DNA of 64,000 nt from Elsinoe ampelina (taxonomy: Eukaryota). Numbering within the stretch: position 1 is the stretch's first letter; each line of letters opens with the position of its first letter. Made by a program: the position numbers and the translations under genes. Below the pieces are notes generated by a model. That model saw only the letters and a list, made by a program, of their open reading frames with translations. It searched no databases and had not been told where the DNA came from. Of the stretch, positions 7,980 through 64,000 are shown in pieces. The DNA is taken from NCBI GenBank assembly GCA_010093995.1, contig ML992509.1:480178-544177 (forward strand). Reading direction: 5' to 3'.

Positions 7980-7988
7980 GTTATATAT

Positions 7989-9836: not shown

Positions 9837-9883
9837 CTAAACTAGATTCTAAACTAGATACTAAACTAGATACTAAACTAGAT
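9837..9883. repeat. 12-bp tandem repeat (CTAAACTAGATA/T, about 4 copies) in the copia IN-RT spacer
   Basis: Directly visible tandem units. Confidence 0.7.
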
Positions 9884-9988
9884 TTAGTTTAGTTGTTCCC
9901 TCTACTTTATATACCTCTTTAGATTTATTAACCTTCTATAGAAGCCTTAGTAGATTAAGTAATCTAATTAGTTTTAGCTAAGGTTATT

Positions 9989-10639
9989 NNNNNNNNNNNN
10001 NNNNNNNNNNNNNNNNNNNNNNNNNNNNNNNNNNNNNNNNNNNNNNNNNNNNNNNNNNNNNNNNNNNNNNNNNNNNNNNNNNNNNNNNNNNNNNNNNNNN
10101 NNNNNNNNNNNNNNNNNNNNNNNNNNNNNNNNNNNNNNNNNNNNNNNNNNNNNNNNNNNNNNNNNNNNNNNNNNNNNNNNNNNNNNNNNNNNNNNNNNNN
10201 NNNNNNNNNNNNNNNNNNNNNNNNNNNNNNNNNNNNNNNNNNNNNNNNNNNNNNNNNNNNNNNNNNNNNNNNNNNNNNNNNNNNNNNNNNNNNNNNNNNN
10301 NNNNNNNNNNNNNNNNNNNNNNNNNNNNNNNNNNNNNNNNNNNNNNNNNNNNNNNNNNNNNNNNNNNNNNNNNNNNNNNNNNNNNNNNNNNNNNNNNNNN
10401 NNNNNNNNNNNNNNNNNNNNNNNNNNNNNNNNNNNNNNNNNNNNNNNNNNNNNNNNNNNNNNNNNNNNNNNNNNNNNNNNNNNNNNNNNNNNNNNNNNNN
10501 NNNNNNNNNNNNNNNNNNNNNNNNNNNNNNNNNNNNNNNNNNNNNNNNNNNNNNNNNNNNNNNNNNNNNNNNNNNNNNNNNNNNNNNNNNNNNNNNNNNN
10601 NNNNNNNNNNNNNNNNNNNNNNNNNNNNNNNNNNNNNNN
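9989..10639. other. Assembly gap (N run)
   Basis: Run of N bases. Confidence 1.
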
Positions 10640-12967
10640 AAGTCTAATATAGAGACCTAAGATAAATTAGTTAAGCTAAACTAGGCTTAGTTAGAGTTAG
10701 TTTACTACTAACTATAGTAGTTAGAAGGTAATTAATAGACTCTAAGCTTAGATAGCCTATAACTTTATACTAAGATTAATTAGTCCTTATAGTAACTATA
10801 GTAAATACTAATAGTAGATAATTATTATTATCCCTTAATACTATAGTAGTAATATTAGAAACTTTAGAGTTATTCTTAAAGATATATTAGTTATACTTTA
10901 GTATAACTAAGAAAAGCACGTTTCCTTTATAGCTAATCTCTATAGTTTAAGTGTTCTAGTAGACTCTACTATTAATAAATCTTCTAAGGCTAACTAGATT
11001 AGTTATAATTAATAGTATATAAGCTACTTTTATAAGATAGATAGTTATAAGCTTTCCTTTATAAAGAGCTATAATATTAATAGTTCTCTAACTCTTAATA
11101 CTAAGTAAGGTATTACTATAGAATAGCTTCTTATAAGGTTCTATAATTCTAGTAACCTTATATCTATCCCTTATAGTATAATTATAGATATAATTAGTTA
11201 CTCTAGAATCTAGTATCTATAAGTTAGAGATGTTACTAGTAGCTAAGATAAATACTAAGTATAATCTAATAGTAATAGCTATATTAATTAATACTAGTAG
11301 GGTTAACCCCTTCTAATGTTATACTTCCTTAGTAATAGAAGCTTTAATTCTCTCTTTAAGAGTTTTATTATTTAGCCTTTATTTAATCTCCTTTATAGTC
11401 TACTAGTTTAGTGTCTATCCTTCTAGCCTTAGATACTTATTTAAGTAATAGCACTTAATCTACTTATACTAGCCTTAGTATATATATTTAGGCTCCTTAG
11501 AGAGACTAGGTTTCTTATAAAGAACATTCTTAGTAGCTATAGAGAAGGCCGTAGCCCCCTTACTAGCCTTTATAGTACTATATAGCTTATAGAGTTTATA
11601 AAACTATCTAAACTTAGTAATTAGTTTAAGTATAGTTAGTAGAGTTAGTAAATCTAGATTAATAAGGTACTTATTAGCAAATACTAGTTTAGCCTTTAAG
11701 ATAGAGAGTAAGAAGTCTCTCTATAGCTTTAAGCCTTAAGCTTCTAGTAGATTATAGTTCCTAGCTTTATCTATAACCTCTTTCTATTACTAAAGCTAAT
11801 AGTCTATATTCTATAAGGAAGAGCTAGATAGCTACTTTCTCTAGAGTACTTTAACCTTAAGCTAAATAGCTATATTAGATAGAGTAAATCTGTTCTTTAA
11901 TACTCTAAGGATAGCCTATAGATAAGGATCCTCTTCTAGTTAGATAATAGTAAGAACTTGTAGTGTAATTAATAACTAAATAAGGCTAGCTAAATTAGCT
12001 AAGGCCTTATACTATTTATTATATTATACTTGTTTCTTCTTATATATCTAGAAGAGTACTAAGAAGTTAGTATTTACTACCTCTAGCCTTTAAGGCTTAG
12101 GGAGCCCTTCTAGTTTAATAGTCTTCTAGGGATTAATAAGGTTCTATATCTTCGTATTTAATACTCTTATTTTGATAATATATAGCTAGCTAGTCTATTT
12201 AGCTAATATAGTAAGAATAATAAGTGTTCTAGCTATTAAGGTGTTAGTATCTATAGTTGTTTATCCCTTTATTAATATCTAAATCCTGTAGTTATAGTTA
12301 AGGCAGTTCTTAATAGATTCTAATACTTAAAAAGCAAGATAGTAGAGAATTAACTAATAAATAGAGTAGGAAAGTAACTACGTAATATACTTATATAGGG
12401 GTAGTTATACCGGGCTTATAACTATTAACTTGTGTAGGGGAGGAAAAAGGATTAATTACTACCTAAACTACTAAAATAAGGTAGATTATAACTATATAAA
12501 TACTTAACCTAGTATACTAAAAGATAGCTAAATTAAAAGAACTCCTTAATAGCAATAGATTAAGACAATAACTATCTAATTTAATCATGAATTAGTAGAG
12601 TAGTAGATAAGTGTTTAGTTCCACCAGGGGATGAACTGAATCAGGGTCCTTCTTGGCGCTCCAGCTTATACCTCGGTTGACAAAAACGCTTGACGTCGTG
12701 ACGCCGTCTTTTTTTTCCCGCCTACGCCATCTGCTGCAGAAACGGCGGCAGTCCGGCACCAGACTGATGGCAACAGTTCATGAATCATTAGACTTTGATC
12801 CTTCTTTTCGCTGCACTGTCGTGACTGTACACTAGATACATGAGTTCCTCCGTCTACAGAGGATTAATGATCAGACACTCTCTATAAGGATTTCGACAAT
12901 TTGCTTGCATCGTCAGTACTGCAGTTGACACTACTGGACTTGGACAAACAAACACACGAATCAAGGC

Positions 12968-14965
12968 ATGACGGATAGCAGAGCGGATACCGAGGTCCCC
13001 TCTGCAAACAACACGAAACCACATACTCCAGATGCTGCTTCAGACAATGTAGCGGATACATCAAGCAATGGCAACCATGCACCACTAGCAGAACATAAGA
13101 ACGAGGATGTTTTGCCATCCGATTCATCAACGACATCACCCCACAACAAGGAGAGCGATGGAGCCACGCCAGCCAAACCGCCACACGATGAATCCAATGA
13201 CTTTGAGAAAAGTAGCATCGGCAAGCGTTCCGTTGTCATGTCCGCGCTATGTATGGCTGTCTTCCTCGCTGCCCTTGACGTGACCATCATCACAACTGCT
13301 CTGCCCACCATCTCATCAGAATTCCAATCATCAGCTGGATATACCTGGATCGGCTCCGCCTTCCTGCTCGGAAATGCTTCTTCAGTGCCAACGTGGGGGA
13401 AGGTCTCCGATATCTTCGGCCGGAAGCCTGTTCTACTTGTCGCCAATGTTGTCTTCTTCATCGGTTCCCTCGTGGCCGGGCTAGCAAACAGCATTGGGAT
13501 GCTCATCGCTGCACGAGCAATTCAAGGTGTTGGTGCTGGAGGTCTTGTCATTCTTGTCAATATTACCATTGCCGACTTGTTCAGTCTCCGGAATCGTGGT
13601 GCCTACTATGGGGTCATCGGTATGGTTTGGGCATTCGCCTCGGCCATTGGGCCGATCATTGGTGGTGCATTCACGCAGAGGGTATCGTGGCGTTGGTGGT
13701 AAGTACCGATGTCACTCCTAAGAACCCCAGCTGATAGCAACCAAGCTTTTACATCAATCTGCCCATTACTGGCGCGTGTCTGGGAGTCCTGTTCTTCTTC
13801 CTCGACGTCAAGACGCCCAAGACACCAATTCTAGAAGGTTTGAAGGCTATTGATTGGATCGGGTCCGTCACTGTAATAGGAGCGACCCTCATGTTTCTCT
13901 TCGGTAGGCCAATCTTTGCTAAATTCGGAGCTTCTAGCATACTAATCCTGCACAGGCATCGAATACGGCGGCGTGACCCATCCTTGGGACTCCGCCATCG
14001 TCGTCTGCCTCATCGTCTTTGGCATCGTCACCTTCGGCATCTTCGCAATCATCCAATGGAAAGTCTCCCGCTACCCGATCATGCCCCTCTCCATCTTCTC
14101 CAAACGCTCCACCTGCGCCTGCCTCTTCATCGTCTCCATTCACGGCATGGTTTTCATCGCCTCCTCCTACTACCTCCCGCTCTACTTCCAAGCCTCCCTC
14201 GGCGCCTCCCCTCTCCGCTCCGGCGTCCTCCTCCTCCCCACCTGCGGCGCCCTCTCCGTCACCTCCCTCGGCACAGGCTTCTACATCCGCAAAACAGGCC
14301 GCTACCTAGACTGCATCTACTTCGGCTTCTTCTTCATGACCCTCGGCCACGGCCTCTTCATCGACCTGACCGCCGACTCCCCCCTCGCCAAAATCGTCAT
14401 CTACCAACTCATCGCGGGTTTCGGCATCGGTCCGCTCTTCCAGTCCCCACTCATCGCATTGCAATCCCGCATCAAACCCCGCGACATCGCCACCGCGACC
14501 GCCACTTTCGGCTTCGTCCGCCAACTCTCAACCTCCATCTCCGTCGTCATAGGCGGCGTCATCTACCAAAACGAAATGCGCAAACGGAGCTCCATCCTCG
14601 TCGACGCTTTGGGTCCACAGAACGGCAACGCCCTCTCCGGCGCCGGTGCGGGCGCCAATACGCAGCTTGTCAACTCTCTCTCGGAACCCGGCAAGGGTGT
14701 AGCGCAGGGCGCGTTCGCGGATAGTCTGTCCACGATGTGGATCCTCTACGTGGCGCTCGCGGGCGTGGGACTGTTGGTTGTCCCGCTCATCGGGACGAAG
14801 GAGTTGAGCGGGGAGCATCAGGAGGCGAAGACGGGGTTGGAGGCGGAGAGGGAGAAGGAGGCGGAGAGGAAGCGGGAGGAGGAGGAGAGGAGGGCGAGGA
14901 AGGGGAGGAAGAGTTTGGGGGATGTGGAGGCGCCGCTGCCGACCACAGGGGAGAAGGGGTCGTGA
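12968..14965 (+). CDS. MFS drug/toxin efflux transporter, DHA2 (14-TM) family; introns 13699-13745 and 13904-13955
   Basis: Motifs LDVTIITTALPTI, WGKVSDIFGRK (motif A), [23 protein letters not shown] after splicing; canonical GT..AG introns join the ORFs in frame. Confidence 0.95.
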
Positions 14966-45167: not shown

Positions 45168-47285
45168 CGGGTGTGAGACACATTGTCACAGTTGGAGAGA
45201 TTTAGGATACCCTCCATACAGCTCACGGCCTGATCGATGTACCCATGAGTGGACAAGTGGGACTCTGCTCTTATGGAGACGAGTTGGGGATGGTCCCTTT
45301 GTCCAATACCAATGGGATTGAAATGACTTACCGATGTGTTCTGTTGCAAGTCCAAGCTTTGAGAAACTTCTGCCATGGTCGCCAACCTCACTGCTCCGTA
45401 CTCTGCCGTGAGATATGAATGTCATGTGCCCGTTTGCCGAGGACTGAGACACGACTCGGCCTTGGAAGTCGATACCTACAAGCGAGGTCTGCAGCATGTG
45501 CGTTGTGAGAAAATCGAGCTGATGAGTGACACCGCTGAACACCATCAACACGCTCTTGTGAAGGATATCTAGCGCTCCTACCACCGCCGAACTGGAAGTG
45601 GCTCGACGGGATCCTTGTCAGCAGTGCAAAGTCTTGTGAAGGCGTCCTTTTTCAGCTCCCCTGGGCACACCGGCTGCTTCAGACCAGTGTAGAGTCCAAA
45701 TGTGATAGGCTTCGACATGGAGTCCGCAGCCCATTCGAGTATCTTGCTGGCAGGGGGGCAATGCTGATTCCTATGTTGAAGACGTGTGACTAACTCCATT
45801 GCTCCAGGCGGGTCGTAAGTGTGCTTTTCTAAGACCATGATTGATGTCGGCCAAGCCAGTGTGTCGCCAATTAATTCTGGCGCCAGTTCAGTTCGATCTC
45901 AAAGGGGATTACGTCTAGTGACATCGAAACTCTCAAAGGAGCAGGAGATATGAGTCTGGACTGGAGAACCTGTGAGATCATGTGAGAGATAAAATCCCAC
46001 CGACGTCTTAGTCCAGGCCGAGATGGATTGAGGGGTCATCCAGACTGCTCGTGTTCCTTCCACTGGAGTTGATAAGCAGAGTGGTAGGTATAACATGACC
46101 TTCATGTGGCGGTGGGGTTGTTGGAAGTCACTGACAAACGCGAACGAGAGATTGCTGTCACTCAGAATGACATGGTCCCGATACAGGCCGGGCAGCAGCG
46201 AGGTCTGCCAATCGTTGTGTCTCAACCATCGTCGCTCTGTACCAGTGCCTCCGCTATGAGGCGTGCTCGACAAGATCCATACCGAACTACTCTGTAGTGA
46301 CGGCGAAGGAGCTCCAACAATTCGTGAGTGGGCCTCCGGTGAACCCCTGCACACAGCTCAGTCAAAACCGAGGAGCCGGAGCCAACGCCGTGACATGTCA
46401 GACTGGCATGAAATGATGCCTTTCTTATTGACCCAGCCTCCGGGAAATCGTTGATGGCTAAAAGATCGACCATTACCCCTGGTCGCCTCGGTAGCGCTTT
46501 CGTGTTTGGAGACGAGTTTGTCATGTTGTGACGACGGTCATGCCAATCAACCTTGCTTCCCAGCCTACCAGAGACCAAGAGATCTGGGACGTTGCATGGA
46601 ATTGTTCGATCTGGTGAATCTGCAAGTCAGCCTGGTTTTAGATTCCCGGTGGTTCCCCGTGTGCCTGGGAGTGAATATGCGGCGACTATATCGGATTAGG
46701 TCTTCATCTCATCACAATGAGATCTCATCTGCAACATCCCCAGCACGATCCACCCGCCAAATACGGCAGAGTGGTTTACATGATATCACGCACGATCATT
46801 CTGAAGAGACACGGAACAGATGCCGCAGCGAGCTTGACCGCAAAGGGACAAACGGCCGCTTCCAATGGACCTCGGATCTGGGGAAATGATGGGATTTTGA
46901 CGCAGGGGAACGACTTGTTGTAACTGGCAAATCGGATCGAGAGACGTGTGTTTCATTCAGAGAGTTACAATAACCGATTTATCTACTGTGCGTGCGCTGA
47001 CTCATCAGTACCAGCTCTTCAGTACCAGAGAAGCTGTACCAGCCTTCCATTACAACACGACTGAACTCCTCCACTTTCCAATCGCTTCCAACATCTCCTA
47101 CCGCATGGCGACAGATGGCACAAGGTACTGAATCGGACGATCTTGATCGTGAGATTCATCTCCACTGCTTCATCGGACGCTAATGCACGATACCGGTGTT
47201 TCTCCTGCAGGAACGCACGAGACATTCGCGAATGATGATGGCAGGATCTCGTACCTCTTGCTGAGGCGACCATGCTCGTGTTGTC

Positions 47286-47293
47286 TATATAAA
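47286..47293 (+). promoter_or_regulatory. Candidate TATA box for the small hydrophilin gene
   Basis: TATATAAA about 100 bp upstream of ATG 47396, followed by a CA-rich leader. Confidence 0.55.
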
Positions 47294-47395
47294 CAAGGTA
47301 AACCTCAAGCATAATTCTCGTCAACACAGCAACCTCTTCCAATTCAATCAACTACCAACCCAAACCACCCAAACCCACCAAACCACTTCAGCAAC

Positions 47396-47705
47396 ATGTC
47401 TGACTACAAGCCCACTGAGCACGACGGTCTCCGCAAGGACGGCCAGCCAGACCAGCGTGTCGGCACCGGTCGTACGTCTTCTTAAGTCCTCTGGTCATAC
47501 CAGCCGGGACATCTTTCTTCACACATCATGCTAAAATCACACAGAGTTCGCCCAGGGCAAGGTCGACCCCGTCGAGGCCGGCAAGCAGGGTGGCCAGAGC
47601 ACCGGTACCCCAGGTGGTTCCGACAACAGCGGCGAGGACTACAAGCCCACCGAGCATGATGGTCTCCGCAAGGATGGTCAGCCCGACGGACGTGTCAAGA
47701 ACTAG
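47396..47705 (+). CDS. 78-aa hydrophilin-like (Con-10/KGG-like) stress or conidiation protein; intron 47472-47544
   Basis: Spliced product MSDYKPTEHDGLRKDGQPDQRVGTGQFAQGKVDPVEAGKQGGQSTGTPGGSDNSGEDYKPTEHDGLRKDGQPDGRVKN; CAACATG start context, strong C-ending codon bias, GTACGT..CTAA..CAG intron. Confidence 0.88.
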
Positions 47706-49043
47706 ATGGGACTAGTCACCAAGGACGATGCCAGTAGCTATCAGTGCCAGTAGCAACAGTCCAGAGAATGGAACACAGTCAACTCATACCGCATCTTGTG
47801 TCTACCTTCTTCAATCATTCAAGCAATGCTCCCGTTCTCAGTGAAGGTAAAACCTCAATGCCTAGCTCTCACCCTCGTGACCGCATGCTTCATATTTGCG
47901 GACATGAGCGCCTGCCACCACAGTAGAAGTTCATCCATATTATTGGCATTGCATATGCTGTCACGATTATATAAGTATGTGCAAGGGTGAGCAGTTTCCA
48001 TCTCAACCACGCAGGTGATAGAGACAGATATTTCTGAAGTTGCACGAGAGCTGCCAGACAATGTATTGGAGGTAGATCACCTGCCGTATTGGGACTAGCA
48101 TCACAGCGGTACCGCCCGCGCCGCAGCACCGAGCGTCGGTACAGATTTGCGCTGCGAACCGAGTTTCCAGCTCAGCTCTCTCACCACAAGGATCTGACCA
48201 ACGAAACTCTGCCGGGGCGCTGCTTTTCTACCGATCCCTCTGGTCAACTTCCTCTTGAACACATGCCAAATAAGTCAGCAGCACCGAGGTCCAAGACACG
48301 CACAGCCCGCGCAGCGTCGCGGTATGACACATTCGAATGCACAGAAAATGATTAGCGATAACGTTGGGGTCGGGGAGTTGGCCAGGGCCTAGAGTTGGCC
48401 ACTTTAGGGTTAACCCTACTGTAAGCCAATCGGAGTGCGCAATTCTGCACCGACGCTAGGCTCGATTAGTGCTCTAGGATTTCTACCTTCTTCTTTGCTA
48501 TACTCCTCCTAAAAACCACCTTTACTAATAGTCTAATCTTAGTTAATTAAACGTAAAAAGCAGCTATAAGCTGCTATAAGTTAATATTATTAATCTAAAG
48601 GCAAGATACCTAAGAAAGAGCTTACGTAGTGTTTTCCTCTTATTACTAGACAAACTCTCTATTAGTAGATTAAGAGTATATATAAATCCTATATAAATGT
48701 ATATTCTTACTAGTAATACCTTATAACTACTTAAGAGAGTGCCTTAGTCGATTTTATTTGCTTCCTTATATACGATAGCTTTAATCTAAACAATTACTAA
48801 CTTAACCTATATACTAGATACCTCTTAAAGTCTATAGTAGATTAACTTACCTATATATAGCTAATGCCTATTAGCTAGTACTAGTACTACTACTTTAAGA
48901 GACGTTATTTAGAGGTTAATCTCTGTCGAAGGCTAGCTATAGATAGTAATTAATTAGAAGAGCTTAGAGATATTACAAAAATTAAAGCGTAGTTTAACTT
49001 TATAAAGTATACCTTTAAAGTTTATAATATTAAGCTATAGAAC

Positions 49044-49241
49044 TATAAGGACTAACGTAGTAAGTATACTACGCTAGCTTACCCTAGAGATACTATTCTC
49101 TATAGGAGAATAAAACACTTCTTGTCTATAGAATAGATAGAGTAGAGATTAGTCTTATAATAATTAAAGATATACTAGTATAATACCTATTCTACTCCTA
49201 TATACTTATCTTTCTAGCTCTAATATTATACCTTTATTACA
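49044..49241 (+). repeat. 5' LTR of gypsy element 2
   Basis: Direct repeat of 56138-56335; termini TATAAG...TTACA. Confidence 0.92.
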
Positions 49242-52200
49242 ATTCTAATCTCTCTTATATTCTATTAGATAGAGCTATATAGATAAGATAGTACCTTATA
49301 CTTAGCACTAGCGAAATAACTAACTACTACTAGAGTAGTACTAGTATAGATAACTCTCTAATAGCTTAGCTATTAGCGAGACATTTACTAAATTAGCTAT
49401 AACTCTAGAGACAACTCCTATTAAAGATCGCTAGGCCGGGGAAGAGCTAGCGCTAAGGCTATACTATACTAATATAGCTCCTATAGAAAGTATAGCTAAT
49501 ATAGGAAATAATACTATATATAAAGCGCTTTATACTTATATTACTTAGCTTAAGAATACACTTAGTAGTCGCTTCCTAGTTGTAGCGCCGGTGCTATATA
49601 GTTATTTTAACAATATATAACTTAATAACATCTACCTAATAAACCTATAAATTGTAAGAGAGTATATACTAAACTTATACTACCTTAAGGCCTTAGAGTC
49701 TACTATTATAGTAAGAGTTAAGGAATTTATATATATATATAATAACGTCTTTAAGATAGTACTAAATATCTACTTTAAAGAAGTTACTTAGTACTATATA
49801 GCTACTAGCTACTTAAAAGGTTAGCTTAGCTACAATTAAAACTTATATACTAAGAGCACTAGCATTATACTCTCATAGAGCCTAATATAGTTCTAGCTTT
49901 AGAACTAAGCCTAGAGTTCTAAAAACTATAGTAATAGCTACGTAGTAAAGTTCTTTACATTACGCTAGCATAGAGAATAGTTAATTACTAATTTCTATAT
50001 ATTTCTCAATAGTTATAAGTTCTATATTAAGATAGTACTACTCCCAGACAATATCTACTATATATAGCTTATTACCTATACTACGCCAGAGCTACACTCA
50101 GAAGTACTCTATTAAAAGAACCTATCTCTAATTAAGGTAGAACTTCTAGTATATCTATCCTATTTAGAGTAGAACCTACTAGGCTACTTCGACTCTATAT
50201 AGGGGTAGTATAAGCGTAATACTAGAGAGAAGACTAATACTTTTACTAAAAGGCCTTACTATAATAAAGACTATAAGAGCTAAAAGGACTAGTAGAGTAG
50301 CGCTAACGCTACCCCTATAGCTTCTTAACCTAGCGCTACTTACCCTTATAATATTTATAAGAGCCTAGACTATTAGGCGCCGAACTATCTCTAGAAGGAC
50401 TCTTTAAAATAGATAGTATTCTTATATTTACTAATTCTAAGTAGCTCTAGCGCGATATAGAATATATACTAAATTCGTACTAATATTATAGTTAACCTAC
50501 CTAAAGGCCCTATCGAAGAGGTAGCTCTAATAGATAGTAGCGCTAATAGTAACTTTATTAGCTAGTATTTTACTATACGCTATTATATCGCCGTTAACCC
50601 CCTAGTAGTATACTAAGTACGTAGCTTAGATAAATACGAATTAACTACCTATAGATATACTAAGTTAGCCTTTACTATTAAGGATAGTAAAGAAATAATA
50701 TAGGCGTTATACTAGTAGTTTAAAAGCGTTAATATAACTAGTTATAATCTTATATTAGGCCTACTATAGCTATTATTCTATAACTTTAAGATTTAGTAGA
50801 GCGCTAGTATATAGAGGTATTATACTAGCGCTATATAGATGTTAATTCTAGATATACTCTTCTTCTTCTAGGAGCTAAATTAGCCTAACGCCTAGCTCTA
50901 TCTAGTATATATACGCTAGGATAAACCTAGCGCTCTAACTCTACTATACTAGCTTAATAACTATATAGATGTTTTTAATAAGAGTATAGTAATAGCGCTA
51001 CTAGGTAACGATTTTACTTACTCTATTAATATTAAAGAGAAGAAATAGCTACTCTAGGGACCTATCTACTCCCTTAGTAAAAAGGAGCTTTAGGTACTTC
51101 GAGAGTATATAGATAATAGCTTAGTAATAGGTCAACTCTAGTATAGTACTAGCTCTATAGAGTCTTCTATTCTATTTATTTCTAAGAAGAATAGTTCGCT
51201 ACGCCTATATATTAACTATTATAGGCTAAATAATATTACTATTAAGAACTATTACCTCTTGCCTCTAATTGCCGAGATACTTAATTATATCGAGAGTATA
51301 TACTTGTTTAGTAAGCTAGACCTTATAGATGCCTACTACTAGGTATATATCTAGCGTAGTAATAAATAAAAGATAGTATTCTACTATTGCTATAGCTACT
51401 TTAAATATACTATTATACCTTTTAGCCTTACTAACGCTCTAGCTACGTTCTAGACTTATATATATTAGTACTTAAGTAGCTTAGTAGACTACTACTATAT
51501 TATATACCTAGATAATATTCTAATCTATGCTAGCGACAAGTAAGAGTATTACTAGGCTATTAGGAGCGTACTAGACTACCTATATAAGAATAGCCTCTAT
51601 ATAAAACTAAAGAAGTATATCTTTAAGGTAATATAGATAGTATTTCTAGACTACGTTATTAGTAGTAATAGTATTATAATAGAGTAGCCCTAGGTATAAG
51701 CCGTTGCTAACTAGCCTACCTCTACTAGCCTTAAGAAGTTATAAACCTTTCTTAGATTTACTAATTTCTACTATTAATTTATTAAGAGCTTCTTCTATAT
51801 AGCGCTACTACTAACTATACTTACGCGAGAGTTAGTCTAAGAGAAGTAAGTAGGCCTATTTCTATAGAGTAATAATATAGTATAGGCCTTTAATAGGCTT
51901 AAAGCTACCTTTACGTAAGCGCCTATACTACGCTACTTTTTATTAAGTAAGCCTCTCTAGCTTAAGACTAACGCTTTAGATTTTATACTTTCTAGAGTAA
52001 TCTTCTAGTAAAATAAAAATAACACCTCTACGTAATACTAGTACTCTATAGCGTTCTAGTTCTAAAAGCTATAAGGTATAGAACTAAACTATACTACCTA
52101 CGATAAAGAGCTTCTTACTATTATAGAAGCGGCGTAGTACTAGCGCTAGTACCTACTTAGCGCTACTACTCTAATTAAAGTCCTCTCTAACTATAATAAC

Positions 52201-55200
52201 CTTAGGTATTTCCTAACTACTAAGAAGCTTTTATAGCGCTAGGCCTACTATACCGAGGTACTAGCGTAGTTTAATATTGTTATCTAGTACTATAGTAGAA
52301 AGACTAACCTAGCTAATAGTCTATTACGTAGGCTTAACTACTACAAGTATAAAGAAGATATATAGAAAGAGTACTATATATTAGTTCCTCTCTTAAAGTA
52401 AGCGTTATAAATACGAAGCGAAGGAGTTATACTTATATCTATTATAGATAAGAAACCTAAGGCTAGTAGGGCCTAGGAAGATAGTAATAAAGCTAGTATA
52501 GCTTATATGCCTTAAACTGCTCCCTAATATAACGCACTTATATAATTCTAGTATACCTCTAGAATAGCGCCTATAAGTCTACCTATTACCTTAGGAGCGC
52601 TATAGCTATACTAAGAAGAGTTAGAGCCTCTAGAGTAAGAAGAGTAGTACCTAGAAAGCACTTATATAAATCTTCCTCTAAGTCTAACTAGTAATGTCGA
52701 ATTAGAATAATATACGCCTACTCTAGTATCCTAGGACGTGCCGCTACTCGCCTAGGAAATAATAGAGAGCTAAGGGCATAAAGATAGTATAATACCTATA
52801 TAACTCTAGGACACCTCTAGTAGAAAGCCTACTATAATTTTAGACTAGAGTTAGTAGATTATATACCTCTACGCTACGTAAGTACTAGTAGATAAGACTA
52901 TATATACCTCTTCTACTTCTATATTACTTTAGGACCTTATCTACGTAGTATAGTAAAGAGACACCTTTACTTATAGTAAGAAATAGAAACTTCTAAAAGA
53001 GAGAATCTTAACTAGTAATAGTACTACCCCTAAGTAGAGCCTATCTAGTAATAGCTTACTCTAGAATAGAGATAGGGTATATATTCTAGAAGAAACTACC
53101 TTAAGAGTAGAGCTTATATAGCACAATTATAATAACCCCTTAGAGAGTTACTTTAGCTATACTAAGACCTACCTTAATATAAGAAGGAAGTACTAGTAGC
53201 TAGGTATGTCCGTCGCTACGAAAGTATATATTAAGCGCTATAATAGCTACTAAAGGTATAAGGTAATATAGTATAAGCCTTATAGCCTCCTATAACTCTT
53301 ACTAATTCTACCTATACTTAAGGCCTTATAATACTAGTCGCTTAATTTTATTACTAGCTTACTCTTAGTAGAGCTTTAGCCCGGCGTTATTATAGACGTA
53401 ATTATCGTATATATCTATCGCTTATCTAAGTTTAGTATCTATATACCGACGTCGACTAAGCTTAATACTAGGGACTTTACTAATCTATTTAAAATAGATA
53501 TTATAATATTATTCGGAACGCTAAAGACACTAGTCTTAGATAAAGAGTCTATCTTTATAAGCAAATTCTAAAGTGCGCTATACTAGCGCTAGAAGGCGTA
53601 ATATAAGCTTAGTACTAGTTTCTATCTATAGATAGATAGCTAAACTAAAAGGTAAAACTAGACGCTAGAGTAGTACCTACGCTACTTTATTAACTATTAC
53701 TAGACGGACTAGCTATACTAGGTTAAGTAGGCGTAATTCGTATATAATAACATATATTAAGCGTTACTATATACTACGCTAGTATAGTTCTTATTTACGT
53801 AGAAGATACGCCTACCTAATAATATTAAGGCGCTAGCGCTACCTAGCTACGCGCTAGTGTATAACTTATTAGTTAATAACTAAGTATAATCTATTACTAA
53901 AACGCGTGTAGAGCTTACCTAACACCTATATAAAGTATAGAAAGACTAAGCGCTAGCCTATAATAGAGATTAATAAGCAAAAGTCTTCTATAATAGCGAC
54001 GAGGTTATACTTAGTACTAAGAACCTTTATAGCGCTAGACCTAGCTATAAGCTATTAGCTAAGTATATTAGCCCGTTTATAATTGTATAACGAATTAGTA
54101 TATAGGTATATAAGCTACACTTACTAGACAAAATAAAGCTAATCTATAACGTCTTTAACATTATACTACTAGAGCTATATAGGCATAGCGAGGGTATATA
54201 CTTACTGCCCCTAGAGGTAGAAGGGCAGGAAGAATACATTATTAAATATATCTTTAATAAGGGCTATACTAGTACTCTAAAGGCGCTATACTACCTAGTA
54301 AAGTAGTAGAGTTACCCTATAGAAGAAAGTATATAGAAGCTAGTAAAAAACCTTATAAACGCTAAGGAATTACTATATAAATATAAGGTAGCTTAGTATA
54401 AGTATAGCGCTAGCTAAATACTCTAGACATACTTAGGATTAATAAGTTAAAGGTATAAATTTTAAAGTAAAAAGTACCTAGGCGTAGCGCTAAGTTAGCT
54501 TAGAGTATTATTAGCTTACGTAGAGAGAACGCTAGCGTAGTAAAAACTATAGAATTATACTAAAGTAAAGGGGGTATAGCGTAGACGTAGCGCCCTAGCC
54601 TCCTCTATCTTAACTATCTATATTATTTACCTTAGTCTTATTCTTATTATTCTCCTTAACACTATTAATATACCTAGTTAGCGCTCTTATAGCATTATTA
54701 ATTACCTACGTAGTAGCGGCTTACTTGTTCTTAGTAACTACCTATAAGAAAGTTAGTATAGCTTAGGCGTTATAGAGGCGCACTTCTAGACTTATATAAC
54801 TAGCTAAAGCCTTAAGTATAAAGCTAGTATTACTAATTATACCTAGGCGTAGCGCCTTTACTAGCTACTTAGTATCGACTTTAGAGATAGAGGGCATAGT
54901 AATAGTACTATTATAGCGTAAAGAAGTTATACTATTACTATTACTTTTATTAACTACCTTACTCTTGCCCTTAGTATTAGACTTGCTCTACGTACGCTTA
55001 GCGCTAGCCTTCTTATATATATAGTTAGTATAGGTAGTAATCTAGCGCTTTAGAAGAATAATATTCTTCTTAGAAGTAGTAGTATTATTATAGAGTAGTA
55101 TATATATAGCAAAGTATTTATTCTAGAGCCTCTTAGTAGTAGCTTAATTCTTAGAGTTAAGCTTAGTAGGCTACTAAGGTTAGTATAAAGTAGATATAGC

Positions 55201-56137
55201 GTAGATATAGAGTATACCTAGTAGTAGTATTTATTACTATAACTATAACAATTATAGTAGATAGCCTTAGCCTTAGTAATCTAGTAGAGAGAATCCTTAA
55301 TAGAGAGTATACTATCTTCGAGCTAGAGGTACTTATCGATAGTAATAGTATAGCGTAAGTATAGTATAGAGTACTAGTTCTAGTTAGTAAAATTACTCTT
55401 ATAAGGTCTATAAAAAGTTAGCGCTAGCGTAGTATAAGTACTATATATAATACTTACTCCTTAGAAATTTTAGAAGCTATAGTTATTAAAGTATATAAGC
55501 GTATAGAAGGTAAGCTAGTATAGAGCTAGAATAATAAAGGGAAAAAAATTTACTACGTAGGTACTACGCTAGGTTAGTAAATAAATAACTAAATAGATAA
55601 GCCTAATAGCTAGATCTATAGTAGTATAGACTTAGTATATACGCTAAGCCTCCCCTACTAGCCCTTAGGCTAGTAAGGCCTAGTCTATACTATATAGTAC
55701 CTAAAATAGGTTACTAGTATAGTGTTAGACCTACGTAAGTATAGAGCTAGCGTTAAGTAGAATACTTACGCGAAGGAAGTATTATAAAGGAGAAAAGAAG
55801 AAGAGAAGAAAAAGAGAAGAATATATATCTAGCTCTAAGCTAAGACTAATCTGGAGAATAATAGGTAGTAGTATATAATAATAAGTAAATTCTTATATAT
55901 AAAGATAATAACGTAAGAGTACTATATTCTATATATAAAGAATTATACTATTGTTACTATATCTAGTATATAAAGAATAGTATAGGCTACTATAGGCGCA
56001 CTATATATATAAAGAGTACACTATGCCTAAGAGGCACTAGTAAGACGCTCTTTTCTAGTTTTCTTCTATACTAGGTTTTCTAGGTTTTATTAAGGCTTAT
56101 AGGTATAAAAGTACGCCTCTTAAAGAGGAAGAATAAT

Positions 56138-56335
56138 TATAAGAACTAATATAGTAAGTACGCTATACTAGCTTACTCTAGAGATACTATTCTCCGTAGA
56201 AGAATAAAATACTTCTTACCTATAGAATAGATAGAGTAGAGATTAGTCTTATAATAATCGAGGGTACACTAGTATAATACCTATTCTACTTCTATATACT
56301 TGTCTTTTTAGCTCTAATATTCTATCTTTGTTATA
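56138..56335 (+). repeat. 3' LTR of gypsy element 2
   Basis: Same 198-bp length as the 5' LTR, mostly transition differences, preceded by PPT. Confidence 0.92.
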
Positions 56336-58942
56336 GAAATGTTTATAATATAGATAAGATTAGCTATATACTTAGTTAATTACTTTATAAGTAGATCTAG
56401 ATAAGAAGTAAAAATAAGTACTAAGCCTTTTAATAGTAAAGTAGTAATTATAAGTAGGTAACTACTATTAAGACTCTTAGTATAGTTAGCTAAGTTATAC
56501 TACTACTCTTTATTATAAAGGGCTAGACGATTTAAGATAGCTAGTTTAATAACTTAGTGCTTCTTCTAGAGAATTTAATATATACTAATACTACTATTAA
56601 GATATCTTTAACTAGCTAGATAAATAATAAGATTACTCTTAAGTAGTTAAAAAAGCACTTTAATTCTTATACTTAGCTAGTAGATAACGCTAGAGTAAAG
56701 GTAAAAGATCTCGATTAACACTAGTAGTTACTTCTATTTAATAGTTACTACTTATACCTTATACTAAAGCTTATAAAGAAGGTATTTAGTAATTAAATTA
56801 CTTTACTAAAGCTACTAGCTTATATCTTATACTTTCTCTAGCCTCTTAATATTACTATCTTTACTAATTTAAAGCGCCTTTATAGAGAGAAGATTCGATA
56901 GATTATTTATAAAGGAGTTATATAGATTAGTAAGTACTACTTTATCGAGGCTTATATTAATAGTTATAATATAGCCTTTAGTAGCAACTATTAAATAAGA
57001 GCCTTTAAAGTAAGTAGTATTATATTAATTAATTTAACACTAGTTATTTATTAAATTTAGTATAGAGTGTCTTTATTAAGTACCTCTTAATTACTTAAGT
57101 TATTAGCCTTATAACCTTATAAAAATTTAACCTCTTAATTTACTAAGATTTTAATCTCTTTAGAGATTTTAGCCTCCTTCTCTACTACTACTACTAACTT
57201 CTTTCTAGCTACTCTCTTATACTATTTAAATGCTTTCTCCTCTAAAGCTACGCCTATTAAGTTAGCTAAGTACTTTAATAATAGACTTAGAAGGCTCCTC
57301 GATAACTAGTAGTATACTAAGTATAGTCTAGTAAGTTATTAGCGCCTTATAAGAACCTTATTTAATACTATAAAGGTAATAGAGAAGAAGGCTTATATCG
57401 CTAAAGAGAAGGCTAGTACTACTAAGAAAGAGATAAAGCTCTTAAAAAGAAAGCTCTCTACTATTAATAAGCGCGCTAAGAAGAAGAATAAATATAAGCG
57501 TAATAGTACTAGTAGTTATCTATCTAGTAGAGCGCTAATAAGCTATAAGAGAGTACTTAAATAGAGAGATACTAATAGAGAGATAGAAGAGACTAATAGC
57601 CTTAAAGTAATTACTTATAAGCGTAGAGTTAACCTTAGTAAGTAAGTTTAAGCGCTTAAGAAGTCTTTAAAGCGCCTTCTAATAGAGTATCTAGAATACC
57701 TCTATCTCTCTTAGCTTAAAGAAGAGTATAAGTAATCTAAGCTAGATTATTACGCCGCTAAAGAGAGGCTCTCTAAGTTATAGTAGCGCTGTAATATTAT
57801 TAAGAGTAGTAAGAGTAAGAGACCCCTTATACTCGAGCGTAATAGCTTAGAGATTAATAAGGCTAATACTACTATATAGCTTAATAAGCTTAATAAGCTA
57901 CTACTAGAGATGCTACTAGAGATGCTACTAAAGGTAAAAGAGAAGAAGGTAGTAGAGGAGCAGCGCTAAGCTAAGAGTAATACCTTTTATAACACTTAAT
58001 TCTAGTAGATTATTATAAATCTAGTAGCTTAAGAGGTTAGAGATAACTAGAGTACTTAGTATATAGTGCTATATAACTAAAGGATATAAGGAAGTAATTC
58101 TACACTATATAATAGGTTATTTAGCGCTTTCTAAGGTCTTAATTACAAGTTAAAAACACTAACTCTAAGCTCTAGCCTTAAAAGCCTCTATACTATTAAC
58201 ATAGGTTAATACTAAAGTTGTATAAGTTTAAAAGTACAAAAGCTCAAAGGTATGCTAAGAAGTACATCCTTCACCAAAAAAGGCAGGTCGGTGTATCTCC
58301 GGGGATATCTCACCGCTTTCCAGAAACTGGGGGTGGCCAACTCTAGGCCCTGGCCAACTCCCCGACCCCAACGTTATTGCAGCATGCATCACTTGCAAGA
58401 CCGATTTGTACAAGGTTTCGCCCTAATTCTGCAAATAAATTAAGGCAGGCTATTGCACAACCAGGATCCCGCTCCTTCACCGCTGACCGCAGCCAATTCT
58501 GACCGTCAGACACCCAAGATTGACCCTCGATCAATATACATAAGGCGGTCGGCGCGATTCAGGGTTCCACACGGCCTCAGCGACTTCTCGGTCAATTCCA
58601 CCCGCACAAGCGCCAATCACTGACATTTTCGGTCTAGCTCCGTGTCTATCTCGTCCGCTAAGCCCTACATTGCCTAACCTTGTCACGCTTGGCCGTGGGG
58701 TGGCCGTGTCGTGCCGGGCGCTTCTGCTTCGACTGGCGTCACTGCCACATGGCTCTTTCATCCTCCTCCATCCCAAGGCTTGTACCTTTCTAGGTGGCTT
58801 GTGCCTGTCGACATATATGCGGTAGGTGGCCTGAATATGCAAGACATGCAGAATATCTCTGTCTTCATGTCCATTCATATTCCTCTTTTCTCACCGGAAG
58901 ATCCAAGAACAGCCTAAATCGAGATCCAAACCAACTACCAGC

Positions 58943-61292
58943 ATGGCGGGCAAGCCGTTCCCAGAGCTGTCTTTTGTGACGGCTACCACGAATTTGGATG
59001 GCTTCAAGGACAAAAAGGTCATGCGAAAGGTCCGGAAGGTGGTCATGAAGAATTATCTCGACAAAGCCAAGGAGGACCCCAATACTACTGATGTGAGAGC
59101 GAAGAAACGGGAGAGTCCTACACCTCTGAAGAGCGAGGCGAGGACCCCTACAGTCCAGTCACCGTCCGATATGCCAGCCCCGTCGATACTCAGGCGGGAC
59201 TCAATGACCTCCTTCGAGAGGCGGACGTCTGGATATGCTCGCAGCACAAGCAGTCGTCCGTCGAGCATAGCAAGCTCCACTGGCTCGACACACTCTGGTC
59301 ATGCTATCAACCCTATGATCCCGCCCACACCGAACCAGGAATGGCTTTTCGGAATCGCGGACGAACTCAACAGAAAAGCAGCACGACCCACCGCCTTCGA
59401 TACCCGAGCCGACTTTGAAGCCATACTTGCTCCGGGTAGTAAGATCACGGCTCAGAAGATGGAGTTTTTGGTAGCATTCACACGTGGCGAAGCGGAGAAG
59501 GCATCGGCAGATGTCTTTGCACAACACACAGCGCTGCCTCCTACCGTCGACCTAGATCGACTGAAGATCAATTGTAAGATTCTTCTCCATCGCTCAGTCA
59601 ACGTAGCTCATGAATATAGGTGCGACCTTCTTCGGATCTGCCGGCATGTCAGAGCAATGGCTACCACTTATGATGCTCTCGCCGCAATCATTCCTTGCAA
59701 GCCTCTGCGTCTCAGCACCATATACAGACTTGATGACCGCAATTTATCGCGGCGACGACCCGTCAAAGTACACCGAGACAAGGCAGACCATGGAGATTCT
59801 AGACATACTACCACGCATGATCAATGATGCACTCAACGAGCACGGCTCTAGCGATGGTAACATTACCTCGGTTGCTCAACTCTTGCTAGGACAACTGTCG
59901 ACACCTTACACGGCCTTGATCGGTTCACATCAGAGTGCTTTGAAGCGCATGGTAGCTCAACGAGGTGGTCTCGACAAGCTCGGCGGCAATGGTGCATTGG
60001 CCATGAATCTTTCCTTGATCAACGCCGAGGCCAATATCCTCCGCAGTGAACCTGTCGAGCAACAGTACTTGACTTGGATATCATCACACCTCAACAGAAA
60101 CGAGAACAAGATCCAAAAGCTTCCGGCACCAGAAGGCCCTCTTCTCTGGGTATCGCGCGGCATGCTCAGTGTCAAACTAAGCCCTCTGTGCCGACCGGAG
60201 ACCTTTCAGCTTATCGAATTGATGTACGAGCTCAACGAGAAAGTTATCAGACTGCAAAGACTCGAGGAGAACGAGAAAGCCGGCAGCATGGACGTCAACA
60301 TCCTTCAGTCGACCGAGCAGGCTGAGATCCGCTTTCGAATTCGACAAATCGTTGGCCAGGTTTACGACTTCCCTCACTGTCACAAACTTGTACCTACTGG
60401 GCCCCCTGATTGGGTTTACGAGACTCTGCGCTTGTCTTCTCTCATCTTCTCACACGCAGTATTTCAACGACGACCTCTGCACATGCAGCACGAATGCACA
60501 TTCGGGCACAATTGCTGTGTGCTTCCCGACATGATCCAAGAAGCTGTTCAGCAGACACCCATCAGGCCAGTCTGGGACCACCTAGCCGGTGTTCTGTACT
60601 GGGCTCTCATGATCGCCGCAGCCTCATGTCATGATCCGGTTGGTGAGACATATGATTCTGACACTCCTTCAATCGAAACACCGAGCTCAAATAACGCAAA
60701 TCCCGTACATGCGCAACCATATCCTACCAGATCAGCAACCGTGCCTCCGCTCCCAGCGACTTCTGCGACACCAGGTACAACGATCACACCACCTCCGCCA
60801 TCATCATCAGCGCCGCCGGCAAACGATGAGCAGCGGCAAGAAGCTTTGCAATTTGCAGCACAAACCTGGAGTAAGGGCAAAAGCATGTTCGAGCAATACG
60901 TATACGCTCGCGACACAGACGTGGTTGGGGGTCTCATGTCAGGAATGAACATCTCGGAAGGTCAACCCGCACCATCATTCATGCCCACGGCTGGACCTGG
61001 ATCTCCAAGTAGCGTACCCCTCTACTACCACGACAGCGGCTTTGTCTCCATGATGGGTCCACCTGCAACCCCAAGTCCGAAGGAAGAAAACAAGCGACTT
61101 CGGCTCGAAGCACGATCACCCCAGAGCGAGGCAGAGGCGAGGAGGCAGAAAGAGAAGCGAGCGTATGTGAAGCGCTTCTTGACAGCCAATGCGGTCCGAG
61201 TAAGCATTCTTTTGCGATTTGAGCACACCACGGCTATGGTCCAGAGTGTTCAGAGACTGGAGGAGGTGACCAGGTGGCTCGCAAGGCGGTGA
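58943..61292 (+). CDS. Fungal transcription-factor-like protein (helical regulatory-type domain, no Zn2Cys6 cluster); intron 59574-59619
   Basis: Basic N-terminal KVMRKVRKVVMKNY; HQSALKRMVAQRGGLDKLG, YETLRLSSLIF and GVLYWALMI segments resemble fungal TF middle domains; intron joins the 294-aa and 560-aa ORFs in frame. Confidence 0.75.
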
Positions 61293-61718
61293 GCGAGCCG
61301 GCAAAGTGACAGTCGTGAATTGAGATACCCGGATTGTGTTTTCTAGCGAGCATGATACCATCTACTTTCATGAACAACATCAGCTTACCGATGACACGCA
61401 TCCAACTCAGAAGATGAGACCACGTGACCCGGACGTCCCGGCTGACTTGCCCTCGGAGAAACGTCACCCTCTTTGCCCTCGCTCCACTTTCCTACCTCGC
61501 GGCTCGACAAGACACTTGCATGCGCTTCACTTGCTTCCACCGCAATGCATACTTTCCTGTCTGTCGACCGCGTGGATCAAAACTGGTGTTGAACGTCAGA
61601 CTTTACTATCAATCTTGTATAAGTATCTCTACTTGCATTGTCACTCGACAGAACTACATCAGTACAAGCTAGATATCAGCAGTCTTCATTTTAGCACTCT
61701 TCCGTCACGTAATCTACC

Positions 61719-63140
61719 ATGTCATCCAACACGATCATACCTTCGTCTATGAAGGCCCTAGTGTGCGTCATGTTGCTCTCCACCGAGTCCTTCCTCATTC
61801 TGCTGCAGCTACTCGAAGCCTGAGCATTTCGAGGTTAAGCCAATACCCGTCCCTGAGCTCAAAGACGATGAAGTACTGGTCAGTGACGGGCTTTACGATT
61901 AACGGAATCTCGAATCTGAATGGCAGACTTAGGTCAAGATTGCTGCTTGTGGCGTCTGTGGAACAGTACGTGCCACGCCCAACTGGGCAAGACAATGCTG
62001 ATGGCGACAGGACTTTCACTACCACAAGGGAGAGTTCATGGCAAAGGTGTGTCCACATGGATTATACGTTACGTCACAGCACTTACACTTGACAGTATCC
62101 TCTCATACCAGGTAGGGATCACAACCCTTGCATCACCCTCCTATGCCGATGTTAGTCTCCAGGTCACGAAGCTGCCGGCACAGTGGTCGCATTGGGATCA
62201 AGCGTCAAGTCCTTCCAGATTGGAGATCGTGTAGCGGCTGATCCCATGCATCCTTGTGGCTCCTGCTTTCACTGCCAACGCACCCAGCCTTTGATGTGTG
62301 AGAACCTCACTGGCTACGGCGGGAACGGTATTCGCTTCCTCCTTCTCCCCTGGCCTTCATCTGACCTTTACTAGCACCTGGTGGATTCGCCGAGTACTGC
62401 GCCTATCCCTCACACCTCCTACACAACATCGGCGACATCCCCTTTCGTCAAGCCATCCTCATCGAGCCCGCCGCCTGCGCCCTCCACGGCATGGAACGCA
62501 TGTCCCCACGACCAGGCAGCCGTGCTCTTCTCTTCGGCTGTGGTCCCACAGGCATCCTCCTCGCTCAACTCATGCGCATGAACGGCGTCGCTCACGTACG
62601 CTCCCTTCCCCACATTCCCCATGGAAGCACCATCTAATCCCTGGCCCTCAGTTGACTATCGCCTCCCTCCCCGGCCCCAAACTCGACATGGCACGCGAAC
62701 TCGCCATCGCAGACGACTTCGTCCCCATCTCCCCCGCCGACGTCCGAGAAGCAATGGCCTCCCTTCTCGCCGCCAACCCGTACGGCTTCGACATCGTCGT
62801 CGAAGCTACCGGCTCTGTCGCCGTGCTGGAACAATCCATCCTTTTCGTTCGCAAAGCGGGCACGTTAGTCGTGTACGGCGTATACGATGAGAAGGCTAAA
62901 GTAGGCTGGAGTCCGAGTAGACTGTGGACATATGAGATCACGGTGCTGGCGAGTTTCTGCTCGACGAGGAAGTTTCCCGAGGTGTTGGAGTATGTGAAGG
63001 CGGGGAGGCTGAAGTTGGATGGGATCGTGACGGATACGTTTAGGTTGGAGGAATGGGGTGAGGTTCTAGGGAAGGTGGAGAGGCAGGAGGTCGTGAAGGG
63101 GGCTATAGTATTTGAGCGACCTGACCCGAAGCAGGCCTAG
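61719..63140 (+). CDS. Zn-dependent medium-chain alcohol/polyol dehydrogenase (D-arabinitol dehydrogenase-like); about 7 introns
   Basis: Spliced motifs MKALVY, CGVCGTD, PGHE, GDRV, structural-Zn CGSCFHC..C, GGFAEY, IEPAACALHG, FGCGPTG, FDIVVEATG. Confidence 0.9.
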
Positions 63141-63185
63141 GAGAGATCCTTGTCTCAATGTGTATCACAGTCTGTCCATGAGGAT

Positions 63186-64000
63186 CTAAGACTCTCTCTT
63201 CACCTCCTCGACTCTAGTCTCTCCCATGTCCTTCTCGTCAAATAGCCCCGTGTTGAGCTTGACATCCATCATCGCCTCATCGTGGATCGTGCTCACATAG
63301 GCATGGAACTTCCTCGCTCCGACGCGGTGCATGAACATCTCGTCGATCTCTTCGAGGGTGCGGCCCTTCATCTCCGGGATGAAGAAGAAGAAGAAAATGA
63401 CGCAGGCAAAGTTGGACCCTGCCCAGATGTAGCCGTATTGTGAGCCCTGAGGAGTGATCAGTGGTGCTTCAACGAGAGGGGTACACGTCCTACCCAGTTC
63501 AAATTCGCCGTGTTGATAAAGTACGGCGAGCAAAAGCTCGTCAACCACGCAAGCAAGTACCCAATCGCCGTCGCCGTCCCGACAGTCCAAGACCTCAGCC
63601 TCGTATTCACCACCTCTGTAGCAATCGGATACGACGCCGCGCCGACACAAGCACTGTCATCCGATCAGCAACCCCCCCATCCTCACCAGCTCAATACCAA
63701 CTCACCAATAAGCACACATGAACAAGCTCGAAAACGCAATGAGACAATTCCTCGCGCCCACCGTCCCCTCCGCCACAGTCCCACTCACCGCGACGGCCAA
63801 CATACACAACCCACAAACCGTCGCGCCAACCATACAAATGACCCTCCTACCACACCAAAACCTCATGGCCACCATGCCGAAATTCACCCCGACAAACCCA
63901 AAACAACTCTGCATGACACTAAACTTGAACGCCTCATCCACGCTCAGCCCGGACACGATGAGGAAATACGTACTGTACGCGATGAAGAACCAACTCCCGC
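63186..64000 (-). CDS. MFS sugar porter (3' part; gene continues beyond the window); introns about 63448-63494 and 63654-63705
   Basis: GRRVIC, YPIATEVVNTRLR, YGYIWAGSN and PEMKGRTLEEIDEMF sugar-porter motifs. Confidence 0.9.

Follow-up and report, generated by a model that had tools for sequence, protein, structure and literature searches.

A candidate relic of a spliced antisense accessory gene in a RIP-saturated gypsy element of Elsinoe ampelina, and a Zn2Cys6-like antisense gene at the same place in its relatives

What did the long interval between pol and the 3' long terminal repeat (LTR) of a ruined retrotransposon once encode, if it encoded anything? This question is raised by element 2 (49041–56333), a chromovirus-type Ty3/gypsy element with gag-pol on the plus strand, located in a 64,000-nt stretch of the Elsinoe ampelina genome (contig ML992509.1 of assembly GCA_010093995.1, forward-strand positions 480,178–544,177; hereafter the window, in whose coordinates all positions are given). 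In this element, a spacer of ~1.7 kb (54400–56120) separates the end of pol from the polypurine tract. The element is saturated with repeat-induced point mutation (RIP), as are the AT-rich blocks of the window in general: blocks of ~0.53 G+C alternate with blocks of ~0.30 G+C at 1–13000 and 48400–58400, and in the latter TpA/ApT reaches 2.2 vs 0.58 in host DNA, while (CpA+TpG)/(ApC+GpT) falls to 0.11 vs 1.23. An initial annotation had read in the spacer a minus-strand gene with several introns and a Cys cluster, and had interpreted it as an undescribed accessory module common to this element and to element 1, near the start of the window. The analysis described here indicates that the region 54430–55560 is probably the RIP-killed relic of an antisense spliced accessory gene; that this gene was of the Zn2Cys6-like kind found in related elements is possible and is put forward tentatively. 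The features of the candidate are the following, in the order in which the minus strand would be read:

54430–55560, minus strand: candidate relic of an antisense spliced accessory gene, proposed from a strand-specific excess of intron-like units and from the relatives' gene at the same place
55408–55457, minus strand: candidate intron 1, GTAAGT..GCTAAC..TAG, 50 nt
55227–55361, minus strand: pattern Y-x2-Y-x6-Y-x23-Y-x2-C-x6-Y, which would be CX2CX6C..CX2CX6C if TAY derived from TGY by RIP; not significant alone
55171–55217, minus strand: candidate intron 2, GTATAC..ACTAAC..TAG, 47 nt, with a weak donor; its removal shifts the reading into the Lys-rich frame
54784–55170, minus strand: Lys/Arg-rich candidate exon of 129 codons, with 19 Lys, 5 Arg and 5 TAA/TAG stops
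54742–54783, minus strand: candidate intron 3, GTGCGC..ACTAAC..TAG, 42 nt
54662–54724, minus strand: candidate intron 4, GTAAGC..GCTAAC..TAG, 63 nt
54478–54519, minus strand: candidate intron 5, GTAAGC..GCTAAC..CCTAG, 42 nt

Since RIP makes GTA, CTAAC and TAG common, the intron-like units were tested against chance, a consensus-type unit being defined as a GTRNGY donor, RCTAAC and YAG within 40–80 nt. The minus strand of 54430–55560 contains five donors and four acceptors of such units and the plus strand none, while dinucleotide shuffles of the same region average 0.22 acceptors, with none of 2000 reaching four. The rest of the RIP'd DNA in the window provides three consensus-type donors in ~35 kb of strand length, so that the density on the minus strand of the candidate region is roughly 40 times higher. 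The minus-strand intron-like units are, therefore, real and beyond chance. All four units reported initially were recovered at their minus-strand positions, and a fifth, absent from that report, was added at 54519–54478. Their description as host-sized also holds, since lengths of 42–63 nt are counted here as a match to the 45–73 nt of host introns, as measured on the GT..AG joints of RNA contigs in the flanking genes.

At introns 1 and 2, the proposed splicing preserves the reading frame: exon A stops two bases into a codon, the third base of which is supplied by the start of exon B; exon B finishes with a whole codon, and excision of the 47-nt intron 2 leads into the Lys-rich frame. The Lys/Arg-rich exon announced in the initial annotation is present at 54784–55170, with the composition listed above. 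The Cys cluster, by comparison, proved to be a back-reading of TAY as TGY. The codons 55364–55350, presented earlier as P-C-L-R-C, are CTA TAC TTA CGC TAT and translate as L-Y-L-R-Y; only one of the six positions of the pattern is a true Cys codon, the other five being Tyr codons, and the pattern lies within chance expectation. Such back-reading is legitimate under RIP but free. The Cys cluster of the window copy is an unproven though well-placed back-reading: the candidate first half-cluster is located ~940–970 nt beyond the end of pol, as in most relatives, and after reversal of RIP it would read P-C-x-R-C, the commonest form in relatives being P-C-E-R-C. Thus, the earlier observation stands for the intron units and the Lys/Arg-rich exon, and is not confirmed in the form given for the Cys cluster and for the parallel with element 1 that is treated further below. 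Two additional markers of reading frame were of no use: TGA counts, TGA being nearly absent in every frame, and a codon model based on purines and pyrimidines and intended to be insensitive to RIP, which was dropped after it failed validation on the known antisense genes of two related elements, L019 and L008 (L numbers denote loci of relatives).

Intact relatives carry an antisense gene at the same place, with both a conserved Cys pattern and introns that can be spliced in silico; the refuting outcome named in the initial annotation, relatives lacking both, did not occur. Using the RIP'd pol of element 2 as query, 55 intact chromovirus polyproteins were obtained, and a profile of 12 of these yielded 80 metagenome loci; the motif counts refer to the 37 loci with at least 1 kb downstream of pol. 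CX2CX6C occurs after pol on the minus strand in 21 of the 37, vs four on the plus strand. In 19 of these 21 loci it is found 287–1082 nt past the end of pol; the motifs of the other two, L006 and L030, at 67 and 2189 nt, look like chance occurrences by their position. In L040 and L027 the LTR follows 42–95 nt after pol, and the motif is absent. The gene starts near the 3' LTR and heads back towards pol, often with a first part rich in Glu, Arg and Lys (helix), followed by two CX2CX6C half-clusters with the spacing CX2CX6C-x(8–11)-CX2CX6C, a basic tract, a long coiled coil or helical region, and an acidic tail. Its introns, of 46–57 nt, are canonical for fungi (GTAAGT or GTGAGT .. CTAAC/CTAAT .. 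YAG); in three groups they separate the half-clusters, in L019 and L057 they immediately precede the cluster, and group B (L021, L032) is intronless. In-silico removal of introns of 46–57 nt joins the half-clusters in frame, with a linker of 10–11 residues, in 8 of the 14 loci tested; the donors are decayed in four of these eight, and the in-frame junction of L019 is readable from its sequence. Decayed donors (ATAAGT, ATGAGT or GTAATT) were noted in several copies among L053, L059, L050, L041 and L014, whose frames are otherwise open; such copies may be dying or may represent sequence variants.

Moreover, the substitution pattern of the relatives' gene indicates purifying selection: the ratio of nonsynonymous to synonymous substitution (Ka/Ks) is 0.08–0.31 in 11 of 12 pairs, Ks being saturated in the twelfth. 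A profile search of 1.84 billion representatives returned 105 clusters at E≤1e-3, with the full motif in 63 and at least half of it in 81. A second search returned 167 group-B proteins, many of them encoded on contigs of 6.3–7.4 kb; the named members are a hypothetical protein of Hortaea werneckii and a Sporormia fimetaria protein with the UniRef name Zn(2)-C6 fungal-type (P0266). Look-alikes of the relatives' protein in the ESM Atlas are Ascomycota clusters. BLAST between the antisense proteins of different relative groups finds no similarity. A different Cys-rich antisense open reading frame (ORF) occurs in L067, one of the nearer pol relatives, where the minus strand at 6308–7012 encodes 235 amino acids (aa) that start with N-P-C-V-K-C and have longer spacers. 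Additional minus-strand frames are open after this ORF, which the profiles of the Zn-cluster family do not detect.

The spacing of a Zn(2)-Cys(6) cluster is CX2CX6C-x(5–12)-CX2CX(6–8)C. The full six-Cys spacing is present in relatives within one exon in four loci, after in-silico splicing in 8 of 14, and in 63 of the 105 family representatives. In the AlphaFold model of the relatives' protein (mean predicted local distance difference test, pLDDT, 84.8), short helices at residues 32–37 and 51–56 are placed at the CX2C turns, together with a helix of 81 residues. In a Foldseek search with this model, ranks 1–14, 16, 18 and 23 are without exception taken by Zn2Cys6 DNA-binding domains (Pho7, Ppr1, Gal4, Leu3, Put3, Hap1, AlcR, Lac9), with no match at E≤0.001 and a best E of 0.18. 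VIA-align superposes the modelled cluster on Lac9, Leu3 and Gal4 at 1.6–1.8 Å over 33–35 residues, with Z of only 2.1–2.7 for these three, within a VIA-align range of 2.1–3.4, and a profile search of PDB sequences returned nothing significant, Lac9 (E=6.9) and Cep3 (E=8.6) being among its eight rows. The density of CGG/CCG in the LTRs of relatives is no higher than in their internal regions, and the same is true of elements without the gene. The relatives' protein may be called Zn2Cys6-like by spacing; by Pfam it remains below threshold, as detailed below, and by modelled fold the likeness is suggestive. Its predicted build is that of a dimeric Gal4-type DNA-binding regulator, with putative zinc and DNA binding.

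The spacer belongs to the element, the anatomy of which is as follows:

49041–49239, plus strand: 5' LTR, a 199-nt direct repeat with 87% identity to 56135–56333
49240–54420, plus strand: gag-pol, wrecked by RIP, in a single plus-strand frame throughout, identified by Pfam matches
54229–54391, plus strand: chromodomain-like C-terminus of integrase, read by eye from the translation, with the end of pol at ~54391
56122–56133, plus strand: polypurine-tract-like run AAAGAGGAAGAA, read from the sequence, directly before the 3' LTR
56135–56333, plus strand: 3' LTR, with 87% identity to 49041–49239

The Pfam matches follow the order reverse transcriptase–RNase H–integrase in one frame, with RVT_1 at aa 727–873 (2.8e-7), RNase H at aa 962–1091 (RT_RNaseH_2, 2.8e-13; RT_RNaseH, 7.1e-12), Integrase_H2C2 at aa 1367–1421 (0.038) and SH3_Tf2-1 at aa 1667–1727 (1.2e-8). 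The remaining five frames of the element, with stops translated as X, gave no Pfam match. Pfam Chromo does not match the RIP'd copy at E≤0.1; the pol proteins of relatives have the chromodomain PF00385. Evidence that the spacer is inherited with the element comes from a second organism (organism B), one DNA run of which provided 697 contig pieces with 80–99% likeness to the window. These contigs cover all bins of 49005–56216, the spacer included, and the summed depth is 34–55 over the spacer (54414–56216) and 34–54 over pol, vs 0.16–5 in the flanks; the differences from the window are overwhelmingly transitions of the RIP type, throughout. Because the spacer is covered like pol in organism B, it is a standing part of the element family and not a nested insertion. 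In organism B, 49081 and 56181 are directly connected in one contig, which represents a solo-LTR form of the family.

Although the position, the back-read P-C-x-R-C and the basic tract invite assignment of the window copy to the Zn-cluster family, a number of results weigh against this assignment, and also against the reading of 54430–55560 as a coding relic in general. The [C/Y] pattern begins at seven places in ~23 kb of RIP'd window DNA, four of them in this spacer and in various frames, and its linker has 23 residues vs the 8–11 of relatives. A RIP-aware motif scan, in which each TpA may revert, ranks the site sixth with 20.7 bits, on a scale where chance sites reach 23.9 bits and true sites score 39–52. 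Of the five candidate introns, three have lengths divisible by three, so that continuity of frame is uninformative for those; the minus frames of element 2 are weakly depleted of stops (9 per 200 codons, P=0.042), and the best stop-poor frame is not wholly the one proposed initially. Even in the relatives, Pfam Zn_clus (PF00172, gathering cut-off 21 bits) scores 13.2–16.3 bits in 4 of 10 ORFs and is found at E≤0.01 in 5 of 75 family members, the best at 1.8e-4; it has no match in any frame of the window copy. A phmmer comparison of 786 post-pol ORFs of relatives with six-frame window translations scored the targets no better than controls. In a RIP-collapsed alphabet, 219 queries gave at most 3.8 bits in the minus frames of element 2, controls reaching 7.7, and RIP-collapsed hidden Markov models gave at most 2.5 bits in the window's minus frames. 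In the pol tree, both window elements are placed outside the gene-bearing clades, on a long branch beside L080 and L022, the latter with a 630-nt spacer and no motif; RIP-biased composition may distort this placement. The sensitivity of the collapsed searches was measured on relatives subjected to saturated RIP in silico, of which L032, L021, L073, L019 and L053 were recovered by 162, 154, 41, 32 and 8 of the 219 queries at more than 10 bits, while divergent controls were missed: L001 was found only via its own cluster, L028 reached 3.7–6.3 bits and L067 was not found at all. Since RIP'd copies of well-sampled relatives are recovered and the window is not, the window copies do not belong to groups A–D. 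The window copy is thus not detectably homologous, at the level of sequence, to the relatives' gene, and may represent a divergent lineage of the same family.

These results are shared out differently among the alternatives. The spacer could have held an antisense spliced gene of another kind, either brtn-like (see below), L067-like or captured in this lineage only, the Tyr pattern being a coincidence in Tyr-rich RIP'd DNA. An excess of intron units without homology to the Zn-cluster family would agree with this, as would a [C/Y] pattern within chance, the different antisense ORF of the nearer relative L067 and the lack of BLAST similarity between groups; however, the motif lies at the relatives' typical distance from pol, reads P-C-x-R-C as theirs does once reversed and is followed by a basic tract as in the relatives, and the homology tests are weak for divergent lineages such as L028 and L001. 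We regard this explanation as rather unlikely. If the spacer were instead a non-coding 3' region, namely an untranslated leader or regulatory DNA, then the units, the Tyr pattern and the Lys-rich frame would all be by-products of RIP, a view that suits the saturation of the block, the weak stop-poverty, the lack of homology in Pfam, phmmer and RIP-collapsed searches, and the fact that CTAAC alone is barely enriched (7 vs a shuffle mean of 5.0) and that loose units with any GTNNNN donor show a mild excess (5 acceptors vs 2.1, P=0.046). Nevertheless, it leaves the strand-specific excess of consensus-type units unexplained, and relatives with spacers of this length carry the gene, those without it (L040, L027) having the very short spacers mentioned above; a non-coding spacer is, accordingly, unlikely. 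Finally, nesting of an unrelated insertion, or recent capture of a host-gene fragment together with its introns, would fit the lack of similarity to the spacer of element 1 and the short spacer of L022, the nearest pol relative with data, but would hardly give organism B the same depth over spacer, pol and LTRs with RIP-type transitions throughout; moreover, the region is bounded neither by an internal repeat nor by a second pair of LTRs, and the purine tract stands after the spacer, directly before the 3' LTR. This last explanation is very improbable. The relic of an antisense spliced gene remains the best account of the locus, with a Zn2Cys6-like product as its tentative extension.

Under this account, the 1.7-kb spacer would be what RIP has left of an opposite-strand accessory gene with several host-sized introns. 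In relatives, the introns would outlast retrotransposition, since their antisense orientation keeps them from being spliced out of the genomic RNA, and the accessory protein might act as a transcriptional regulator, either of the element or of host genes. TG and CA would have become TA in the window copy through saturated RIP. Since this converts Cys into Tyr, Gln and Trp into stops and ATG into ATA, nothing functional is left; as a dead relic, the window copy is of interest only for what it points to.

A gene read in antisense from the interval between pol and the 3' LTR has already been published for fungal gypsy elements, so that the earlier proposal of an undescribed system is not supported. 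The gene brtn of Boty (Zhao 2011, Virology 417:248), as far as the available portions of the articles citing it describe it (PMC7264820, PMC8365987, PMC4227169, PMC5987419), has this position and orientation in a Ty3/gypsy element with a chromodomain. The comparison of brtn with the relatives' protein, which is Zn2Cys6-like, is by these descriptions only, and the name BRTN does not appear among the 120 family members listed. According to the accessible text of a 2020 review (PMC7264820), no protein of such antisense ORFs (aORF-3R) is clearly similar to known proteins; the placement itself applies to the window candidate, which is borne by the element with 54430–55560 within 54391–56122. The same text describes, in the Tat/Retand lineages of plants, the antisense ORFs Grande gene23, RIRE2, Retand ORF4 and PvRetro13 ORF2, which are alike in position, orientation, conservation within families and a suspected nuclear or regulatory role, and which differ, as far as these descriptions go, in belonging to non-chromovirus lineages and in encoding unrelated proteins, Zn2Cys6 being a fungal type of domain. 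Our search of the literature, which did not include the original description of brtn and may thus be qualified by it, found no antisense gene with a Zn cluster described for fungal LTR elements. An antisense gene at this place is, therefore, of a known kind in fungal gypsy elements, and the relatives' gene for a Zn2Cys6-like protein may be either brtn-like or a second kind.

Among cellular proteins, the Gal4-type factors (PF00172; Gal4, Ppr1, Put3, Leu3, Hap1, Pho7, Lac9) share with the relatives' protein the six-Cys spacing, the basic linker and the coiled coil. The relatives' proteins differ in being short (~150–360 aa), encoded by retrotransposons, below the Pfam cut-off and without the large middle domain of fungal transcription factors, and the window copy differs further in its one Cys codon of six. 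Among animal retroviruses, HBZ of human T-cell leukaemia virus type 1 (HTLV-1) is a basic leucine zipper (bZIP) regulator with a dimerising coiled coil, produced from a spliced antisense transcript that starts in the 3' LTR; it resembles the relatives' protein as a coiled-coil product of antisense splicing, but with a bZIP in place of a Zn cluster, so that the likeness would be one of analogy only.

Although LTR retrotransposons are known to carry extra antisense genes, the function of these has stayed obscure. If a retrotransposon-borne Zn2Cys6 dimer under purifying selection were confirmed, this class would gain a testable function, namely binding to its own LTR or to host promoters, and mobile elements would be linked to the most expanded family of transcription factors of fungi. 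For annotation, 'hypothetical proteins' of ~190 aa beside gypsy pol genes would have to be considered parts of elements. A still broader reading is doubtful when taken as a whole: many ascomycete chromoviruses might encode their own Gal4-type dimeric DNA-binding regulator in a spliced antisense gene by the 3' LTR, with introns protected by the antisense orientation, as a fungal counterpart of retroviral transactivators; both window elements would then be divergent lineages of this system, and such elements might also be a source of host genes for Zn2Cys6 factors.

The other element of the window had been invoked as a second carrier of the same module:

526–707 and 7807–7989: LTRs of element 1, with a spacer of 2.0 kb at 5830–7806

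In the spacer of element 1, the minus strand at 6121–6720 has four stops in 200 codons vs a shuffle mean of 11.8 (none of 500 shuffles reaches this value) and a Lys-rich tract, and nowhere does the true pol frame have so few stops. This stop-poverty suggests that an antisense ex-ORF is likely in element 1 too, in this case with a single exon. The spacer of element 1 contains no consensus-type intron unit and no full [C/Y] motif. Comparison of the two spacers by tblastx and blastn finds only low-complexity matches rich in Leu, Tyr and Thr, and a RIP-collapsed comparison of the spacer of element 1 with that of element 2 and with relatives finds no similarity. A word-indexed protein database search with the antisense frame 5920–6729 gave 880 candidates, none at E≤0.01. 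At the level of sequence, the supposed parallel between the two elements thus reduces to low complexity, and an accessory module common to both finds no support in their spacers. Of the initial interpretation, what has held is that the spacer belongs to the element and that the minus strand has an excess of intron signals, while no support was obtained for the shared module, for the undescribed kind or for placing the window copy in the relatives' family.

RNA contigs from three runs were compared with 46000–64000. Within 48404–58019, such contigs, which cannot show absence of expression, touch only the purine-rich 55788–55821, with loose ends on either side; this match, in a purine tract ~300 nt inside the spacer, is a low-complexity cross-match and not expression of the element.

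As to the surroundings of element 2, a perfect 45-nt inverted repeat (ATAACGTTGGGG...) at 48358–48402 and 58333–58377 encloses the whole 10-kb AT-rich block, and a contig of organism B connects 48359 straight to 58377 with one extra G, which represents the empty site. The repeat and the empty site together indicate that element 2 seems to be nested in a larger insertion bounded by terminal inverted repeats; the remaining 2 kb of this insertion (56334–58332) has no Pfam match in six frames. In the AT-rich block, after element 1, runs of N occupy 9108–9292 (185 bases) and 9989–10639 (651 bases), as assembly gaps or masking. The block that holds element 2 sits between expressed genes: RNA contigs match the flanking host genes at 46600–47800 and 58800–63700 with 100% identity and GT..AG joints, on both strands.

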